Shown piece by piece: positions 1-46,100 of a DNA stretch of 64,000 bases (positions within the stretch are counted from its first letter, which is position 1; each line of letters starts with the position of its first letter). Under the pieces are notes generated by a model. That model searched no databases. It worked only from the letters and a program-made list of their open reading frames with translations, and had not been told where the DNA came from. The position numbers and the translations under genes were made by a program. The stretch covers positions 768,001-832,000 of the forward strand of contig CM000432.1 of assembly GCA_000165345.1 (NCBI GenBank). Direction: 5' to 3'.

Positions 1-1570
1 GTAGAGGCGGAGGAACCTTCTTACCATTTCTATATCTTGGGCGGTTTCTATCATACTTCATATAGCATGCATTACAGCAAATTTGTTTTTCAACATATGT
101 AGTGGGTGGAATATTACTTGATGGACTTGTTTCAGGTGTAGACGAGATCTGATCTGACTGAGTGTTGAACGCATGGTTAGATTCTTGTTTTAGAGATATC
201 GAATGTTCATCTTTATTGCTTGAATATAGTTCTCCCAAATTAAGAAATCTCCACTGTGAAGTTTGAGTAGTTCCGCAAACAATACAAATAGCAGAGCTCT
301 TGTCAATTTTTCTTCTTCCTCCAATATTTGATTTAATGGATTTTCTAGGCTTTTCAGCCTTTCTACTTTCTTGTCTGAGACCTATTTTAGATACCCAATC
401 CCCTAGTGTGTTGGAGATCTCGAATCCTCCATCAAAATTATTGAGTGACTTTCTAGAATTTGAAGATTGTGATTTACTAATAGGCGAAAGAATTGAGGGA
501 ATTGTCTGGGAAGAGTGAATTGGGGAGCTATTCACTGAAATACTACTGCTGCTCACTCCACCCGTAAAATTGACAGATGGTATATTTAATCGGCTTTCTG
601 AGCCTCCAATAAAATTGGCTGTAGGAGTCAAATTAGCACCTACAGCCCCCCCATTACACGGAATTTGAGATAGCGATGCCAATGATACCATATTTGGAGC
701 CTGAGATCCTCCATTTTGTAACTCAAATAGGTTAAAAGGCATAACTGTGGATCCAGTTCCAGATCCAGTTACAGTTACAGTTCCAGCCCCAGCCCCAGTC
801 CCAGTCCCAGATCCAGATCCAGTTCCAGTTCCAATTCCAATTCCAATTCCAGTTCCAGATCCCGGCCTAGATCCCTGTCCAGTTAATGCATTATTATTAC
901 CTTGCCAACCAAGATACATTTGTCTAAGTAATGGATTAAAACATCCTGCTGTTGTACCTGCTATTCCGTATCCACCAGCTAAAATTGGAGAATACATAGC
1001 CATGGCCATTTGATTGTATAATGCTAACTGTTGATAATAAGCATTCATAGTGTTATTCCACTCTATCTGAGATCCAGGATAAGGAAATAAGCTATTTGAC
1101 GAATCTACTTTCGATTTTAAACTCCCTTCATCTACACTGAATGAATTGAAACTATTCGAGTTATTACTCTGAGAGTTATTGACTAAGCTTGGAGGAAGCA
1201 GTTGAGCACCTGTTGCTGGGCTACATGAAGAAAATCCAGCTCCTAATCCTGTATTATTAGAAGTTGATCCTCCATTTGGGAAGTAACTATTTGAAGCCAT
1301 TTCTTTATTCTTCATCTCAGTAATTTTTGAAAATATTGAATAAAAGTTACTCAGGTTTGAATATGCGTCATCTCTTTCATTTACTATATTGCATCCTGGT
1401 GACGAATTCGCACTAATAAACATAGTAGGAGGACTATCAGGAACATTCTGAGATGCCAGCTTGCCAGTTGTTGAGTAGATAAGCATAGGATCTTGCGCCA
1501 AATCTGAAGCTTTGACATTACTCATCTCGGGAATTGCCTCTTTGGATATTAGATTTGTGCTGAATGACAT
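1..1570 (-). CDS. GATA-type zinc-finger protein with a Gly-X dipeptide repeat. The 5' end is complete with ATG at 1570 preceded by an in-frame TAG. The 3' end runs off the window.
   Basis: Manual reverse-complement translation is open from 1570 to position 1. It reads MSFSTNLISKEAIPEM...GSGTGIGIGIGTGTGSGSGTGTGAGAGTVTVTGSGTGS...CIVCGTTQTSQWR...(~55 aa)...CCNACYMKYDRNRPRYRNGKK. CxxCGTTxTxxWR and CNAC-Y match the GATA finger signature. The track misses this gene because it has no stop inside the window. Confidence 0.6.
   Translation of the reverse strand, partial: MSFSTNLISKEAIPEMSNVKASDLAQDPMLIYSTTGKLASQNVPDSPPTMFISANSSPGCNIVNERDDAYSNLSNFYSIFSKITEMKNKEMASNSYFPNGGSTSNNTGLGAGFSSCSPATGAQLLPPSLVNNSQSNNSNSFNSFSVDEGSLKSKVDSSNSLFPYPGSQIEWNNTMNAYYQQLALYNQMAMAMYSPILAGGYGIAGTTAGCFNPLLRQMYLGWQGNNNALTGQGSRPGSGTGIGIGIGTGTGSGSGTGTGAGAGTVTVTGSGTGSTVMPFNLFELQNGGSQAPNMVSLASLSQIPCNGGAVGANLTPTANFIGGSESRLNIPSVNFTGGVSSSSISVNSSPIHSSQTIPSILSPISKSQSSNSRKSLNNFDGGFEISNTLGDWVSKIGLRQESRKAEKPRKSIKSNIGGRRKIDKSSAICIVCGTTQTSQWRFLNLGELYSSNKDEHSISLKQESNHAFNTQSDQISSTPETSPSSNIPPTTYVEKQICCNACYMKYDRNRPRYRNGKKVPPPL
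745..872 (-). repeat. (CCAGWY)n hexanucleotide repeat on the plus strand. It encodes a ~38-residue (Gly-Ser/Thr/Ile) dipeptide repeat in the minus-strand GATA gene.
   Basis: The plus strand reads ccagttccagatccagttacagttacagttccagccccagccccagtcccagtccc... The 88-aa plus-strand ORF at 747..1013 (PVPVPDPDP...) is the antisense artefact of this repeat. Confidence 0.8.
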
Positions 1571-3348
1571 TTGGATTAATTCTTTTAAAGTTTTGAATAA
1601 CTAATATACTCTATTAAATAACTGATAGTTAATTGGCCAAAGCCAAATTATTTTTATTAATTTCTGATATGCACTGCTTTATTTTATATATTCCTTAGTT
1701 TCCCCGTCTAATTATCAGTGCATTTTACTTTCATTCGTGACCTTTCTTTTTTTTTGTTGCTACTGACTGAAAAAGAAGCCCTTAGAAACAACTTCCTCAC
1801 TCCAACCAGATACCAGAAATCTGCTCAACTCACCTTATCAATTTGCTAAAACCTTGACTCACTTTTTCGATACTTTTTTTCTATTCTGTTACCTTGATCT
1901 TTATAACTTTTGCATCACAAAGATTTAATTATAGTACTTAACCACTTTATACTCACTAAAGCCTTGAATTTTACCTCTTCATATAATGATATATTTGCAG
2001 GCTAATTATCATTACAATCTCCCTTGATAATCTTTTTCTACTTTTTTCTAATGATCTGTAATCTAAAATTATACCGTTACTTGCAATTAATGATTTTAAC
2101 GTCTTGCCTCTTGTCGAGAAGCTAAGGCGCCAACACTGCTCGATATGATGTTTGTATGGGATTTCGCGATGGGTAAAAAATTATACAATTTTTTTTTAGT
2201 TAATTTTCCTCTAAAAAGTACATTTTAGAGCCGATTATAGTGGATTATGATAGCTTTAGTTTCTAGTTCTTGCATTTTCTTCATAAAGAATTCATTTTTT
2301 TTTTTAAGATATTAATTATAAGCATACAAGTTATTAAAGACAACTCGACAATATTTTTTTGTGACTTATTAGTAAACTTATAAATAGTTAATCCTATTTC
2401 GGATTTGGTCTTTTATAATGAATTACTCCATCTTACTAATGATAATTATTATTCGCATGCATTATATGTGTGAGCCAATCATTTAAATCATTAACCAAAG
2501 ACTATAGTAAAAGTGACTTAAAAAAAATTAGGAATATTTTTGGTGCTTACAGCTATACATGATCTTTTGTTTATCTGTTGTTCTTTACATTATTAAATCA
2601 TCTTCAAGCCTGCTCAAAATTATAAAATTTGATTAATAGTAAATACTACAGAATATGTATAGAAGCTCAGTTGGATACGCATACAAACGAGTTATGTGCA
2701 TTATTTAGAAAATAAATAAAAGTTACTTTATTAATGTGTAGAGTAGAATAAACCGAGAGAAAAAAAACTTTTAGTTTAAAATTAACCTTTCAAATTATTA
2801 AACTATTAACATCAAAACTTTCCTCCTACTGATAGTTTGGTCTACTATTCTTTTCTACTCTTATTTCTTCCCACCATGAAGGCTGTGCAACTTCAACCGG
2901 AGGATCCTAAAATTTTTTTATTCATTAGTAATAGATCCTTGAATATCAACTACCCAACTATTTTGGAAGTTCTACTTAACTTACCCTACAACAACCGAGT
3001 ATCTTAAATAAAAACAAAGGATCAAAGTTCATTCTCTTCAAGCTGTTTTACTGCAATTAATTCACTTGTTGAACTCTGTGGGGTTCTCACAATGTTTGAT
3101 TAATTTTCAGAGGTAAATTGATTTGGCGGCACGTCCAAAGTAAGTTTAGTTTTTTTTTAGTACCTATTTTAACGTAGAATTGATAATGCAACAATTATTA
3201 AAAATTACGTATTGAACTTAATAGAAAGTTTTGATAACGAAATACTGAAATGGTAACAGAAACTTTAAATAACGAGTCAAAACATGCAAATAGATCTTAG
3301 TAGAATTCTAGAAATAAGTGAAAAACCTAAACTTTAGATTAAAGGTAG

Positions 3349-3375
3349 TATTATGTATTCCGGGAATACATAATA
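3349..3375. repeat. Perfect 27-nt palindrome (tattatgtattcc-g-ggaatacataata) that could form a hairpin, in an intergenic region.
   Basis: Direct reading shows 13-nt arms that are exact reverse complements around a central g. Confidence 0.6.
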
Positions 3376-3860
3376 AATAAAAGGTCATCCATCCTCTCTT
3401 TTCCCTTCCTGCAATATCTCTTGCCAAATTTTCCTTGTATCTTAAGAATTGCCTTTCCCGTAAATTAGAAATCCTTTTTTGATTTTTTCATTATACTTTT
3501 CATTCTTAAGTTGAAAAAAATAATATAATAGTAATAATACCTTCCTTATAAGATGGTGAGAAAAATTTTATCGTTTCTTAATATAATTACAATAGAATAG
3601 TAATAACAGCACCACTATAGTGAGATCAATATTGCATTTGTGCATACAATGTAAATTCAGATATTCTTATCTTGCGAATATTAAGCACTACTTCGACAGC
3701 TTGGTCTCTTTCTATCCCTTCTATTTTTCCTCTCTACTCATTAAAATGAGATTAGTAAACATTCTAATATAAACAAAGAAAGTCAAAAGCATCGTGTAAT
3801 AAAGATTCTCTACTATTCATGAGGTTTAATAATTGAGGCAAGGAATCTCATTGTAATGCT

Positions 3861-5408
3861 TTATTGTTCCAAACTTTCAGAATTTACCTCTTCCTTTGGA
3901 TTCTCACTTGCATTGCAGCACATTGAAGTTATTGAGAAACCATCGTGATGCGATGCTTCAATAGCCTCAGGCTTTATTGGAATAATATCCTTCGGCATGC
4001 TTAGAGGAGCAGCGCCTAAGACTGCCATTGGAATACATTGTTGAACTGGATAAGTGACAATAGGTGTTTGATCCATTGGACCTAATGTGTCAACATTGAC
4101 GACTTCTTTAGATTCAAGTCCTCTAATTAGATTCTGAGCTCCAGAAGGAAGTGAATCAATATCAACAACTCCAGCAGCAGCTTCACATCCACATAATGAG
4201 ATCTGGTGTGGTGCTAAGTTAACCTGCTGAGGTGCACCGGTTACCAAATTATATACAGCCTGTTGTTGTAACATAAAGAATTCTTGAGTATACATTTCTT
4301 GAGTTTGAATAGTAGGTGTAAGAATCCATTGGTTTTGTAAATATGTCATCATTAATGGATTTCCTGGAGACATTGGTAAAGGATCCCACAATTGTCTTTG
4401 CAAGTTCATTTGTCTCTCGAAGCTCTGCATACGTTCTAGGCTTGGTTCCTGGTTGGAGTCAATACCATCCATTGCCTCACGGTATGGTGTAATCATCCTA
4501 TCAATTTCCATCTCGCCAACTAAAACTCTTCTTTCTTCTAATAAATCTGCATTAACCCTCATCCACATTGCATGGAAGTCAGCCTGTGATAATTCTGCGG
4601 GATTCATCAAGTGAACATCCATCTCTCTCTCTCTCTTTCCAAATTCAACATCAACAGGTACTGGTTTGATAATATCTTCATACACAAAATAGGGAACTTC
4701 TCTTACACATTCCACCTCGTATACTTCCTCAGTCATCTTAAACTTTGGAACTACTCGCTTTCTTACTGGAATTGGAACAAAATGATCACGGAATTCCAAA
4801 ACTGGAACATGGACTGGAACAACAAAGGGCTTTGGGACCATGTATGGCACGGGAAGCTCAATCAAAGATGGAACAGCGTCTCCTACTGCAACTCTTGTGA
4901 TGCTAACAACAGTGTTTTCATCGATCTCAATAGGGTTTGGTGGGAAAATTGGGAGTGATTCAGGGGCGTTAATAAAAGGTTTTTCTGGTTCCTCTACATA
5001 TGTCACCTTTTCTACAATCTTCTCAACTGTTTTATACTCGACAACAGGTTTGGTTACAACCTTCTCAACAATCTCCTCTTTTGGAACGTATTTAACGTTA
5101 TACCTCACAACGGGATCCTCGATAATTTTTTCCACTGTCTTAATTACTGGAACCTCCACAACTTTCTCTCTATATTCAGGAACTATACGTGGAACTGTTC
5201 TCACTACTTCCTTAACTTCAACATCTGGTACTACAGTTTCTACCAACTTAACTAAAGGTATTCCTCCCTCAGCTACGCCACTTGTCGAGCTTTCTTCCGG
5301 GATTTGGAGCGATGGAACCACATATCGCTGCTCCTGAACTTCATCTTCAGCAAAGCGAGCATGGTGCTCACGTCCCGAGGTCTGACCTGAACGCTCACTA
5401 TTACTCAT
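3861..5408 (-). CDS. Alveolin-repeat inner membrane complex (IMC) protein.
   Basis: A 515-aa ORF with ATG at 5408. Its core is rich in Val/Pro/Glu/Lys iterations (EKVVEVPVIKTVEKIIEDPVV, EKIVEKVTYVEEPEKP, KPFVVPVHVPV), typical of alveolin domains. Confidence 0.7.
   Translation of the reverse strand: MSNSERSGQTSGREHHARFAEDEVQEQRYVVPSLQIPEESSTSGVAEGGIPLVKLVETVVPDVEVKEVVRTVPRIVPEYREKVVEVPVIKTVEKIIEDPVVRYNVKYVPKEEIVEKVVTKPVVEYKTVEKIVEKVTYVEEPEKPFINAPESLPIFPPNPIEIDENTVVSITRVAVGDAVPSLIELPVPYMVPKPFVVPVHVPVLEFRDHFVPIPVRKRVVPKFKMTEEVYEVECVREVPYFVYEDIIKPVPVDVEFGKREREMDVHLMNPAELSQADFHAMWMRVNADLLEERRVLVGEMEIDRMITPYREAMDGIDSNQEPSLERMQSFERQMNLQRQLWDPLPMSPGNPLMMTYLQNQWILTPTIQTQEMYTQEFFMLQQQAVYNLVTGAPQQVNLAPHQISLCGCEAAAGVVDIDSLPSGAQNLIRGLESKEVVNVDTLGPMDQTPIVTYPVQQCIPMAVLGAAPLSMPKDIIPIKPEAIEASHHDGFSITSMCCNASENPKEEVNSESLEQ
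4621..4636. repeat. (CT)8 microsatellite inside the alveolin CDS, encoding RERE on the minus strand.
   Basis: Bases ctctctctctctctct at 4621-4636. The protein contains GKREREMD at this position. Confidence 0.7.
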
Positions 5409-6610: not shown

Positions 6611-7405
6611 ATGCCAGCAAAGAAGAATAATGGTGGACAAACCGATAGAGATTCAGAATCAGGATTAACTGATCGTCAATCTAATAAAGTTGAAAGTAAC
6701 ATAGTTGAAGTGCCAGAATTGCATTTCCATGAAAAATATTCAGCTGTGAATATCCCTGTGGTACAGGAGAAGATTAGATATGAAACAAAGGAGGTGATTC
6801 AAGAAAGAGAGGTACATGTAGTGAAGCCAGTCGTTAAGGAGAAAATTGTTGAAGTTCCAAAATATAAAGTTGTTGAGAAAGTTGTTGAAGTTCCCCAAGT
6901 TGTTGTGCAGGAAAAGCTGATCGAGGTTGAGAGAGTGGAGGTCACTTCAAGAAGCAGAAATCAATCAAGACCAATAAGTCCGGTGGAAAAGAAACAATTA
7001 GATATTGTTACGCAATATCGTCAAGTCCCAAAGCCAGTAGAAGTTCCTATTGCATTTTACTCTGCTATTCCTGTTCCTATTTTGATAGATAGAGCAGTTC
7101 CTGTTCCAATGGAATTGCAAATTATTCAAGATATATTATGTCCAAAGATTGAGGCGATCTATAAAGACATTCCAATTCCAATTCCAGTTAAGAGAACAAT
7201 TGAAAAACCTGTGCCAATTGGTCTATATGATCAGCCAGAACTTCTCCAAAAATACCTTCACGACCCTAATGAGCCATTACCAAATCCAGTCGCAGCTTTA
7301 GAGCAAATGGCTCAACAAGCATCCATGGCTGCTGCATTAAACCAACAAAATATGATGCAAATGATGCAACAGCAGGGCAGTGTACAACAAGAGCCTCAAG
7401 AGTAA
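6611..7405 (+). CDS. Alveolin-repeat IMC-like protein with a Gln/Met-rich C-terminus.
   Basis: A 264-aa ORF with ATG at 6611. It carries the repeats EKIVEVPKYKVVEKVVEVPQVVVQEKLIEVERVEV and later PIPIPVKRTIEKPVPI. It is arranged head-to-head with the 3861..5408 gene. Confidence 0.65.
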   Translation: MPAKKNNGGQTDRDSESGLTDRQSNKVESNIVEVPELHFHEKYSAVNIPVVQEKIRYETKEVIQEREVHVVKPVVKEKIVEVPKYKVVEKVVEVPQVVVQEKLIEVERVEVTSRSRNQSRPISPVEKKQLDIVTQYRQVPKPVEVPIAFYSAIPVPILIDRAVPVPMELQIIQDILCPKIEAIYKDIPIPIPVKRTIEKPVPIGLYDQPELLQKYLHDPNEPLPNPVAALEQMAQQASMAAALNQQNMMQMMQQQGSVQQEPQE

Positions 7406-20620: not shown

Positions 20621-21905
20621 TTAAAGGTTTTCTGAAGTAGCTTTTGGAGTTAAGAAGCCACTAATAAACAATTTACCATCTTTCTTCTTTCTCTTTGTAC
20701 ATAGAATCAACTTTTTTGCCAGCTCTGTCCAGGGATAAGTTTTGATCTTTCTAGAATGAATAGAATTATCTTTCTTATCAGCACGAGATTTGCTTGTAGT
20801 AATTAACATACTATCGCTGCATGTGGACTGAACTCTTCCAACATTTTGAGTCTTAGAAATATCTTGTGGATAAGATGAAATATTGGCTTTGATGGATTTT
20901 GTAATAGTAGAGTCTTCTCCAGAGTTAGGAATAGTGTGTGAAATTTCAATTCTATCTTCAGAAATGGGTGAATCAGCAGTTAAACTGTTGGTTGAAGGGA
21001 TATGAGTATCAGGGGAACTAATATCGGCTTTAACTAGAACTGAATTTACTTGAGTCTTTTGGCATTCTTGATTAGAATCCTTTTCTTGGATTCTATTCGC
21101 AAGGATGACCGAATTTTGTCCAAAATTCAGGCCTTCTTCCATAATATGATTAGCTAACTCTTCCAAAGGTTTGAGTTCATTACACTCCAACAAGTTATTA
21201 AGCATAACTGTATATACAAAATGCTTAAGGCAATAATTAACATGAGCTGTTGCTGTAATTGATTCTACATGCGTCCAATGATGGCAGTAAATATGACTAT
21301 AAACTCTGAATAATCTTCTTAATATGTTTTTAACAATTAATTGAAAATCGTCAGTAAAAGGCACCCCTAAAGATAGAGGGATAAATAAAAATTAATTTCC
21401 CAAATTTGGCTTAAACTTACCAGGCTTTAAAGGAAAGATTCTGGTATCTGAAATCTGGGAATCCACCCATAAAAACAGAGACTTGATATAAACAGTTGCA
21501 GGTAAAGGCAGTGCAGCCTTCTTTGGATCTTCTTGCCATTTAAATACCATGAAATGAGCTCTCATAAGTGGGCAATGGCAGACATTGCTAACAAATCCCC
21601 ATGCCATCTGAGCATCTTTGAACAGATCCATAACTGGGAATCAAAAAATGAGTAAAAGATGTACAAGAATAATGAAACAAAGATATTATAAAAAGAGTGG
21701 GAATATTTCTCTTTTTTGTTTTATCTTTCTTTGCTTCATTTTTTTCAAACTCACCTTTATGTGCTGCCCATTCATCTCTATTTATGCCTTCTGGATTCTT
21801 AACTGCTTCATAAAGTATGGATGTATCAAAAGTTTGGCTTAGAACATCACAAGAAATTGGTGCTTTCATTACTGTATCCATTGGTTGTTTATTATTCGTA
21901 GCCAT
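20621..21905 (-). CDS. MOB1: MOB kinase activator (MOB1 family) with a ~165-aa low-complexity C-terminal extension. It has three exons: 21905..21755, 21633..21421 and 21366..20621.
   Basis: Three track ORFs (109, 79 and 247 aa) join through GTGAGT..CCCAG and GTAAGT..CTTTAG introns. The joined protein aligns continuously with MOB1: EWAAHK|VMDLFKDAQMAWG ~ EWIAVNTVDFFNQINMLYG, CPLMRAHFMVFKWQED ~ CPVMSAGPRYEYHWAD and FPLKPG|VPFTDDFQLIVKNILRRLFRVYSHIY ~ [32 protein letters not shown]. The total is 1110 nt, or 369 aa. The ATG is at 21905, while the track's start at 21917 is a TTG. Confidence 0.75.
21367..21420 (-). other. MOB1 intron 2 (54 nt, GTAAGT..TTTAG, phase 1).
   Basis: The donor is GTAAGT, the reverse complement of acttac at 21415-21420. 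The acceptor AG is at 21368/21367. The junction reproduces the conserved PxKxG-VPFP motif. Confidence 0.7.
21634..21754 (-). other. MOB1 intron 1 (121 nt, GTGAGT..AG, phase 1).
   Basis: The donor is GTGAGT, the reverse complement of actcac at 21749-21754. The acceptor is cccAG at 21635/21634. The alignment to MOB1 is gap-free across the junction. Confidence 0.7.
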
Positions 21906-43152: not shown

Positions 43153-46100
43153 ATGAAGAAGATTGGATTTATTTCTTTAATTTGTATTTTAATATATCTA
43201 AATATCCAAGTTACTTTGGGCGGAGATGCTCAGACTACCCTTATTGAGCAGGAAAAGCTGTATAAAATAGGAATCGAGGAAAATGAATATGATAAAGCGC
43301 TTGAAGATGATTGGATTAAATTCACTCCCGAGAAGAGATGCCAGCTAATAATAGATAAGTTAGAAAATGATGTAAAAAAATCGATTTCAAGTGCAAAAGA
43401 AAACTTAATAGTCTATACAATACTTAGACCAATTCCTGTTGATGATTCTGGGGCATGCTTTAAAAGGATCATATTATGGCATTATGAAAAAGTTGAATTA
43501 ATCAAGAACGATAGGAGCATTGTTAATTATGAGGATATAATTCCGGTAAGGTTGTTACTGTTGGGTATGTCTCCAAAACAAATTGAAAAAGAGCCAAAAG
43601 ACCTGGCAGAAATTCCAGAATTTCTTGATATAGCTTGCAAGCAATTACTTTCTCAGAAGCCAAGAATGAGATGGCCATTGTCAGGTGCAAGATATCATCC
43701 ATATATTTCGAATATTTTAGGTTTTCAAAAAGTCTGGATTTATCGTGTGAGTGAATTATTATCAGCCTGCGCTCAACATACATATCAATCTTCAAATGGA
43801 TACATTATAATGCTTCTTGTTTCAACAGAACAAATGGTGAATGATAGTATTTTTGGAGATTACCAGAATGCTTGGAAGGGTAGGCACGGACAAAAGGATA
43901 AGAAAGAAATCATATTTGATATGGATTATGACGTTAAGAAATCAAAAAAATCGAGTCCTACTGTGAATGAAGGTGAAAAAACACAAGAACGTAAAGTTAT
44001 TGATTTTGATATTCCAAAAGATGCAGAAAAAATAAATACAAATTCTTTTTCTCGTTACCCACAAAATAATGTGGTTGATATTGAGGTGATTAAACCTCCA
44101 AGTCATAATGGAGAGGAATATTATTCAGGAAAATTTCCAGTTTATGAGATTCCAAATTCTGTTACCTCAGAAATATGTCAAGAAGTTGGGACAAAAGAGA
44201 TTCCAGGCCAATCTAAGTATAAGCAATTTCCAATGTCAAGTTCAAAAAACTATGGATTTTCCTCATTTATTGTTCCTCCAAATAGAATTGTGGAAAGGCC
44301 AAAATACACAGCAATACTACCAGATGATAGAGTAAATATCAATTTGCATGAGTATAGGAATTTCTGGAAAAGGCCAAACTATGTGAATAAATATAGAAAT
44401 ATTGATTCTCTTTATGATTATTTGGTTGAAAAAGCAAATTTAAATTGGCCAGAAACTTCAAATGATTATTTGAAATTTGAAAATGAAAATTTGGTTAAGC
44501 CTTATATTATAAATAAGTCTGAATATTTCAAAGTTGATTCAGATCCACAACTTGTGATTTATCCAAGGCAAGGAGGAAATTTGGAAAGCCGGTATATTGG
44601 AGGAGAAGAACCATTAATTCAGCCGTTTCAGAGCTCAGAACTTGTAGATTCATATGAGTATGGATCATCTGAAAATGATCCACAGATTCAGAGGCTTGCA
44701 TATTTTGATAACAATGAATTACCTGAATATGAGAGGACTATGATAGATGATGTTCCAGATAAATTCTTTCCATTTCCTGTTCAAAAACAAGGAGTTACTC
44801 TACTGAATTATAAGGACCCTCTATTAAAAGTAGATTTCCAAGGAATGACGGGAAGGAAAGTCAATAAACAGCCATTTTTAAATTTTGAAGAAGATGAATC
44901 ATTTCAAGAAAGAGATATTTCTCAGGAAGATGATGATTCAATTCCATATTCTAAATTTAGAGACACTGCAAGGAATGCAATTGTCAAATGGTATATTGAT
45001 GATGATAATGAAGGAGATACCCGTTTAACAGGCAAGGATAGAAGAATAATAAAAAAGTTATTTTCACTTATTGAACATGTTGATCCAGATCATTATAATG
45101 AGTTAATGAACAGGGGGGATGATTATATTGTTAGACAAATAATAAGGATTGGTAGATCTAAGGATAAAAACTTTGAGAATATTTTAACAGCAAGAAAGAA
45201 TAGATCAGGAGTAGATGATAATTATTATGGTGTCTATAAGGAAAAGAAGACACCAACAAAAATATTAAAATATAAAAGTAAAAAAGGTAGGAGTAGAGGA
45301 AAAAATAAAAGAAATCGTGGAAGTAAGTCAAAAAAAAGAAGTGGAAAGAATGGAGGAAAGAAAGGGGGAGGATCGTCAAAAAAGAAGCAAGAATTTGCCA
45401 GTAATAGCAGTGAGACAGAGTCAGAATCATCAGAGGAAATTACAAAAATCCCCAAAGATATATTCATCCAGGATTTATTGAATGAAAAGTATGATTTCCA
45501 AAATATACTGAAAAAGGAAAGATTGAAAAGATTCCAAAAGCTATTAAAGGATTCACTGGCAGCAAGGGTGAATGAGATTGAGAAAAAAGAAAAAATGACT
45601 ATTCCAATAAAGAATGTTGAAATCTTGAAATCTTCTGTAAAAAATGAACAAAAGAATAGGGATCAATTAGAAAAGGAATATAAGAAAAATCTGGAAGAAC
45701 ATGCAAAAATACTCGATCTTCTCAAGAAGAACCAAGAAAAGCTACGTGAAAAAATGGAGGAAGAGCATAAGAAAAAGCAGGAGGAGTTAAAGAAAGAGAT
45801 GAAAGATTCAGTCAATCAGCTTGAAGCAGCATTAGATACTGCATCAGGAACTATAGGAGAAATTGAAAAGGAAAAAAGATTTTTAGATGAAAGATTGAAA
45901 AACTTAGAAGGAGATAATCAACATATTCGAACATTAATCAGTATGAAAGATAATTATATAAAGAAGATGGAAAAAAGTAGAATTGAGTTGGAGACAAAAC
46001 AGGAAATTGAATTGAAGGAAATGAAGAAGAATTATGAGAAACAATTGAATGAGTTAAGGAAAAATTTGAGTAAAGATGATACAATTTCTGGATTGAGTAG

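Follow-up and report, generated by a model that had tools for sequence, protein, structure and literature searches.

A candidate GATA-type zinc finger with a long inserted loop in the Cryptosporidium protein cgd4_3280

Cryptosporidium has few recognisable sequence-specific transcription factors, and current work centres on ApiAP2, Myb and E2F. The left end of a 64,000-nucleotide stretch of Cryptosporidium parvum DNA (GenBank assembly GCA_000165345.1, contig CM000432.1, positions 768,001 to 832,000; the whole stretch is called the window below) holds most of the gene cgd4_3280, whose product contains two motifs resembling the halves of a GATA-type zinc finger, set unusually far apart. Does the gene encode a GATA finger with a very long loop, or does the DNA between the two halves hide an intron? 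An earlier inspection of the letters alone (the sequence-only reading) had offered both answers, and had placed the candidate in a lineage with few specific transcription factors, which fits the organism, an apicomplexan. We found sequence support for the first answer once the insert was removed, and the open reading frames (ORFs), codon bias and splice sites spoke against the second. We consider it probable that cgd4_3280 is a Cryptosporidium-only, single-exon gene encoding a divergent class-IV GATA-type finger, with a long, translated and disordered loop at the tip of a hairpin.

Gene structure and anatomy of the finger

The gene lies on the minus strand. Its ATG sits at window position 1570, and no stop codon intervenes before the left edge, which gives 523 codons in a single exon; neither the strand nor this run-off was mentioned in the sequence-only reading. 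The window ORF has 100% the same residues as positions 1-523 of a 558-residue C. parvum protein (EAK87789.1, CPATCC_001714, CPHLJ_4g3280; member P0008 of our protein set, the window DNA being identical to our locus L001); therefore, 35 codons and the stop are missing from the window. The gene was identified as cgd4_3280, and its published quantitative PCR (qPCR) primers map to window positions 541-562 and about 663. The same 558-residue product is given in four independent C. parvum annotations. The protein is predicted to be disordered over a long N-terminal region and to carry, towards its C-terminus, a single class-IV (GATA-type, treble-clef) finger, with the following parts (window coordinates).

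2..1570, minus strand: coding sequence of cgd4_3280, residues 1-523 of 558 (translation; identity to EAK87789.1; qPCR primer mapping).
287..316, minus strand: basic N-terminal flank RRKIDKSSAI, residues 419-428 (near-invariant in the genus alignment; nonsynonymous divergence, dN, about 0).
239..286, minus strand: N-terminal half-finger CIVCGTTQTSQWRFLN, residues 429-444 (Pfam GATA positions 1-13; aligns to GATA1/3 and MED-1; AlphaFold strand).
92..238, minus strand: 49-residue insertion, residues 445-493 (no in-frame stops; codon-position bias; ratio of dN to synonymous divergence, dS; predicted local distance difference test score, pLDDT, below 50).
65..91, minus strand: return strand and second zinc knuckle EKQICCNAC, residues 494-502 (invariant; gap-free to GATA fingers once the insert is removed).
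2..64, minus strand: recognition helix and basic tail YMKYDRNRPRYRNGKKVPPPL, residues 503-523 (GATA alignments; AlphaFold; invariant in the genus).

The first half, CIVCGTTQTSQWR, begins at residue 429 with the pair CIVC (residues 429-432, codons at window positions 286 to 275), and the second half, CCNACYMKYDRNRPRYRNG, includes CNAC (residues 499-502, positions 76 to 65). Both pairs lie in one minus-strand frame with 66 residues between them. Both motifs, exactly as quoted before, and the odd spacing thus occur in one ORF, and the original observation is therefore real; only its measures changed. The gap between the Cys pairs had been estimated at about 70 residues, and the insertion at about 55. 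The conserved flanks WRFLN and [DE]KQIC bound an insertion of 49 residues (residues 445-493, window positions 238 to 92, 147 nucleotides), and the range 200-420 proposed for a splicing check misses most of it, since the insert lies mostly below that range. Outside the insert, 12 + 5 = 17 residues separate the Cys pairs in every species, which equals the animal and fungal GATA spacing.

In the N-terminal half, C429 and C432 are predicted to form the first zinc knuckle, and this half also has the T-x-T-x-x-W-R signature and, as a predicted strand, WRFLN; the second knuckle contains C499 and C502, with an additional Cys498. These two CxxC pairs, four candidate zinc-ligand cysteines, were invariant in all orthologue sequences. 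GTTQTSQWR and CNAC aligned column for column with GATA1/3, MED-1 and AtGATA18. The helix is followed by a basic tail of net charge +6, RNRPRYRNGKK, whose conserved NRP lines up with the QNRP/VNRP of GATA1/3, and the sequence runs on beyond the window as PPYLYSQNQ.... The loop departed from a GATA finger, with 66 residues in C. parvum and 44-68 in the orthologues in place of 17-20. Judged on the sequence, this two-half arrangement is far beyond chance.

Relatives were found in 11 Cryptosporidium species or genotypes: C. parvum, C. hominis, C. tyzzeri, chipmunk genotype I, C. canis, C. felis, C. bovis, C. ryanae, C. serpentis, C. muris and C. andersoni. The C. andersoni sequence was not retrieved; its protein shares a 90%-identity cluster with that of C. 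muris. Every retrieved orthologue had an in-frame insert between conserved halves. The half-fingers were invariant in C. parvum, C. hominis, chipmunk genotype I, C. canis, C. felis, C. bovis, C. ryanae, C. serpentis and C. muris, and C. tyzzeri had the same halves. The near-invariant blocks read RRKIDKSSAxCxVCGTTxTSQWRFLN and [DE]KQICCNACYMKYDxNRPRYRxGKKxPPPLPxYxY; their dN was about 0 (maximum 0.05, in the most distant pair compared), with dS at or near saturation. An exhaustive hidden Markov model (HMM) search of 1.84 billion representative proteins found only Cryptosporidium sequences, plus one spurious repeat protein (P0014). The standard 17-residue-loop orthologue that the sequence-only reading had suggested looking for appeared neither in this search nor among the Cryptosporidium relatives, whose inserts span 27-51 residues. 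A word-index homology search with the insert-removed alignment returned zero matches. The gene order IMCp, cgd4_3280 orthologue, HSP70 was kept in C. parvum, C. bovis and C. serpentis. The distribution of the insert indicates that the loop predates the split between the gastric and intestinal Cryptosporidium clades.

Coding status of the insertion

The C. parvum insert (residues 445-493) includes the peptide QESNHAFNTQSDQISSTPETSPSSNIPPTTYVEK. The insert contains 33% Ser+Thr, four Asn and four Pro, and its net charge is -4. Among the species and genotypes tabulated, the Ser+Thr share was 24-39% in all but C. felis (12%, Pro-rich), and the insert was acidic throughout (-2 to -8), with basic flanks (+4 and +6). 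Its length varied as follows.

49 residues: C. parvum, C. hominis, C. tyzzeri, chipmunk genotype I, C. canis, C. bovis.
50 residues: C. felis.
51 residues: C. ryanae.
27 residues: C. serpentis, C. muris.

The first five residues (LGELY in C. parvum) follow the pattern [LMT]-[GS]-[ED]-[LI]-[YHF], and the final two to three (TYV in C. parvum) are mostly hydrophobic, a pattern that is also kept. Because its ends are conserved, the truly variable part amounts to about 40 residues in the intestinal species and about 19 in the gastric species. AlphaFold predicted the insert to be disordered, with pLDDT below 50 over most of its length.

If the roughly 150 nucleotides between the half-fingers were a cryptic, unannotated intron, the mature protein would have a normal loop of 17-18 residues. 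Consistent with this, taking out exactly 49 codons gives CX2C-X17-CX2C and raises every GATA score, and the removed length is divisible by three. The insert itself showed neither the GT...AG edges of a spliceosomal intron nor its freedom from frame, stop and codon constraint. There was no donor GT after WRFLN and no acceptor AG before [DE]KQIC. When all in-frame GT..AG pairs were enumerated, those downstream of WRFLN spanned only 33-54 nucleotides and would leave loops of 48-55 residues; no pair was workable, in keeping with the earlier remark that no intron signature is visible in the insert.

The reading frame told the same story. All eight orthologous genes checked at the DNA level were single uninterrupted ORFs. 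The insert had no in-frame stop in any of these eight species, as the earlier claim of an in-frame insert implies, and the other two frames contained 1-10 stops each; the one exception was frame 3 in C. felis, whose GC-rich insert had no stop there. The frame thus remained open despite heavy divergence, and length differences between species were always multiples of three. Differences by codon position numbered 5/8/17 between C. parvum and chipmunk genotype I and 9/11/22 between C. bovis and C. ryanae, and dN/dS was 0.11-0.16, similar to that of the disordered N-terminal region (0.14-0.18). This third-position bias and low dN/dS indicate selection on the encoded peptide. The GC content of the insert was close to that of the remainder of its gene, species by species. 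A real C. parvum intron within the window was used for comparison: the 54-nucleotide intron of Mob1 (21367-21420, minus strand) has GTAAGT...TTTAG boundaries and contains in-frame stops. The agreement of the four annotations on the 558-residue protein also argues against splicing. We regard a cryptic intron as hardly credible; the evolutionary evidence, which is the basis for this assignment, indicates that the insert is coding, with a translated loop on which purifying selection is moderate.

Family assignment, predicted fold and possible function

The two halves had been called good matches to the GATA finger. This holds once the insert is removed, and fails for the native domain, which stays below the Pfam threshold. 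Against PF00320 (gathering cutoff, 26.8 bits), the native sequence scored 9.1 bits as full protein and 15.7 bits as domain, and the match was confined to model positions 1-13. Without their inserts, six orthologue variants scored 25.1 (C. parvum), 26.0, 28.2, 27.9, 26.6 and 27.1 bits, and three of the six reached the cutoff; Pfam misses the domain because of the long insertion. Similarly, hhalign against a small GATA alignment gave 82% over 20 columns, all in the N-terminal half, for the native sequence and 97% over 46 columns after removal. A profile search of solved structures with the insert-removed finger returned GATA1/2/3/4 or MED-1 as all of its best 11 matches (E 2e-6), with gap-free alignments over the 17-residue loop. 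For the finger without its insert, these sequence comparisons support the GATA-type assignment.

AlphaFold was run twice, once with the C. parvum domain and once with its short-insert counterpart from C. serpentis. Both runs paired the strand WRFLN with the strand KQICC and started a helix from NAC; both also predicted that RYR and KKV form a small hairpin and that PxYLY lies in a short helix. For the C-terminal helix/hairpin/helix, the block-mean pLDDT was about 79-89 in the first model, against about 66-83 in the second. AtGATA18 (PDB 8j48) superposed on the first model at 1.4 Å over 35 of 38 residues.

Several results weigh against a GATA finger. Besides the weak native Pfam score, which covers only the start of the model, the C. 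parvum finger stays slightly below the cutoff even after removal of the insert, and the native domain had no match among PDB sequences. Only one of the five AlphaFold models in each run was confident, and a Foldseek search of the PDB with the first model was not significant (E 2). The finger also diverges from the canonical sequence, with TSQW for TPLW, CYMK for CGLY and a helix three residues shorter. Judged by GATA-1/DNA structures, the TSQW and CYMK changes would hit two hydrophobic DNA-contact positions of canonical fingers; binding to WGATAR cannot be assumed. The fold evidence is compatible with a GATA finger and not decisive, so the family assignment rests on sequence.

In another explanation, the CxxC pairs would form no shared metal site: the N-terminal half would be left over from a disrupted, degenerate GATA finger, and its C-terminal counterpart would work separately. 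HMM and profile tools indeed aligned only one half when the insert was present, and four of the five AlphaFold models in each run lacked a confident domain fold. Neither half, however, varies across the gastric and intestinal clades (dN about 0, dS saturated), and a relic would not be preserved in this way. Moreover, the residues flanking the insert total exactly 17 in every species, and the confident models of two orthologues both pair WRFLN with KQICC. We judge separate halves to be very unlikely.

A GATA-like treble-clef module could also lack sequence-specific DNA binding and instead make protein-protein or RNA contacts, with the long loop as an interaction surface. The sub-threshold Pfam score of the native domain and the replaced hydrophobic contact residues fit this, and some GATA-type fingers, such as the GATA-1 N-finger with FOG, mainly bind proteins. 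On the other hand, the top sequence matches were all DNA-binding GATA fingers; the Asn of CNAC, T-x-T-x-x-W-R and the basic NRP tail are retained; and the flanks are strongly basic and invariant, as expected of a nucleic-acid-binding surface. A module of this kind seems unlikely to us, and we infer from the sequence that the cgd4_3280 finger may bind DNA.

In the divergent GATA finger that we favour, C429, C432, C499 and C502 would hold one zinc, WRFLN would pair with KQICC, and the helix would begin at CNAC. The 49-residue acidic, Ser/Thr-rich, disordered loop would sit at the exact tip of the second beta-hairpin, so that its removal restores CX2C-X17-CX2C. Homology suggests that DNA would be contacted through the helix, the T-x-T-x-x-W-R loop and the basic NRP tail. 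In GATA-1/DNA structures, the main DNA contacts lie outside the turn between strands three and four, which is near the cofactor-binding face; the inserted loop would accordingly be expected to point away from DNA. It may act as a regulatory segment, through phosphorylation or through electrostatic autoinhibition or competition with DNA, or it may bind a partner, and the N-terminal region may contribute short conserved cofactor motifs.

In published expression data (Tandel et al., 2019; PMC6877471, supplement 4), the mean log2 counts per million of cgd4_3280 were 7.40 in sorted asexual stages in vitro; females reached 9.17 in vitro and 11.26 in vivo, an increase of about 14-fold from asexual stages to in vivo females. 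A second table from that study gives triplicates of about 10.8, 5.3 and 7.6, which, to judge from the captions, are probably sporozoites, 24 h and 48 h (PMC6877471). In the qPCR data of Mauzy (2012), the transcript was detected and peaked at 12 h among the points considered, from 2 to 36 h. RNA-seq and qPCR therefore indicate that cgd4_3280 is expressed and enriched in sexual or transmission stages, and the rise in females suggests that it may act in sexual or post-fertilisation development. Being genus-specific, with extreme purifying selection on its finger and a strongly raised female transcript, the gene is a reasonable candidate for regulating the sexual or transmission phase, and a transcription factor role may reasonably be inferred. 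We also entertain a bolder and rather unlikely proposal: that cgd4_3280 founds a Cryptosporidium-restricted 'split' GATA-finger subclass, in which the loop would be a docking site or a switch working by phosphorylation or autoinhibition, and the protein a sequence-specific female or post-fertilisation regulator with a specificity other than WGATAR.

Public databases already annotate the protein as GATA-type; the domain call is thus not new, and only the loop anatomy is. Low-complexity or disordered insertions are, furthermore, common in apicomplexan domains, which also limits the novelty. Oberstaller (2013) counted '3 GATA DNA-binding' proteins by text search, although at least one gene so labelled, cgd2_1760, is an ArfGAP, and listed cgd4_3280 in a table merely as 'hypothetical protein', and a 2025 review on Cryptosporidium gene regulation left GATA-type factors unmentioned. 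In the literature searched, neither cgd4_3280 nor cpbgf_4003280 was mentioned in searchable paper text, and no description of the long loop was found.

The surrounding locus and comparison with known systems

The N-terminal 418 residues (window positions about 317-1570, minus strand) are mostly low-complexity and carry short motifs kept from C. parvum to C. serpentis and C. muris, namely IPDSPPTMF.SANSSP, LLPPSL.N and YYQ(Q)(L/M)..YN, which may be cofactor-binding linear motifs. Within this region, window positions 752-862 (minus-strand codons of residues 237-274) hold an 18.5-copy hexanucleotide array, TCCAGT on the plus strand, encoding a run of Gly-Thr/Ser/Ile/Ala dipeptides. The array varies in length between C. 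parvum isolates and sister species (variants of 558, 558, 562, 560 and 540 residues), is absent from chipmunk genotype I, and could serve as a subtyping marker. Two plus-strand ORFs, 300-518 and 747-1013, were rejected as antisense artefacts of the conserved minus-strand gene.

Upstream of cgd4_3280, positions 1571-3860 form the longest gene-free gap in the window (2,290 bp, 28% GC); it is of similar size in C. bovis and about 1.2 kb in C. serpentis. Neither WGATAR nor E2F motifs were enriched in this 2.3-kb region and Rfam found no match there; the WGATAR count in the gene's own upstream region says nothing decisive about DNA binding. Rfam and tRNA scans across the window found no RNA genes. 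The neighbour cgd4_3290 is described as 'articulin, adjacent paralogous gene', which fits two IMCp ORFs at 3861-5408 (minus) and 6611-7405 (plus), and further ORFs correspond by domain content to cgd4_3320 through cgd4_3420. Among them, the Mob1/phocein gene cgd4_3350 (about 20621-21631, minus) is interrupted by the intron at 21367-21420; its large ORF covers Pfam positions 105-170 only, and its upstream exon is ORF 21392-21631. Three large ORFs, 43153-49539 (plus), 49710-52097 (minus) and 53305-62094 (minus), encode 2128, 795 and 2929 residues and had zero Pfam matches at E <= 1e-5. The region of the first shows a strong G and A excess on the plus strand (GC skew up to 0.41, AT skew 0.24).

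Two genes of the same genome share the GATA label with cgd4_3280 and were compared by label alone. One, cgd1_1700, labelled GATA/AT-hook, is likewise higher in females (PMC6877471). The other, cgd2_1760, is annotated as an ArfGAP and not as a transcription factor.

Among characterised proteins, the animal and fungal GATA factors (GATA-1/2/3/4, AreA; CX2C-X17-CX2C, PF00320) share with cgd4_3280 the two CxxC pairs, T-x-T-x-x-W-R, C-N-A-C and the basic NRP tail, and the insert-removed finger aligns with them gap-free at a spacing of exactly 17. In contrast to their 17-residue loop, the loop has 66 residues in cgd4_3280 and 44-68 across the genus. The helix of cgd4_3280 is three residues shorter, TSQW and CYMK replace TPLW and CGLY, and the native domain falls below the Pfam threshold. 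Moreover, cgd4_3280 has just one finger, at the very C-terminal end, and its tail leads into a conserved PPPLPxYxY extension.

The best single-domain match was C. elegans MED-1 (PDB 2kae; 27.4 bits), which likewise has a single divergent GATA-type finger and an aromatic or aliphatic residue after CNAC (CNACF in MED-1, CNACY in cgd4_3280). Unlike cgd4_3280, MED-1 has an 18-residue loop without an insertion. MED-1 recognises a non-GATA site, showing that divergent fingers can change specificity; this says nothing direct about cgd4_3280.

Published GATA finger loops have 17, 18 or 20 residues (PMC4401516). In the plant factors (CX2C-X18-CX2C and CX2C-X20-CX2C; for example, AtGATA18), the loop position shared with cgd4_3280 tolerates changes in length. 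The plant loops are extended by 1-3 residues, whereas the Cryptosporidium inserts add 27-51 (PMC4401516 for the plant loops). For zinc-finger biology, cgd4_3280 suggests that a disordered insertion of 27-51 residues can persist at the hairpin tip of class IV fingers through the whole history of a genus.

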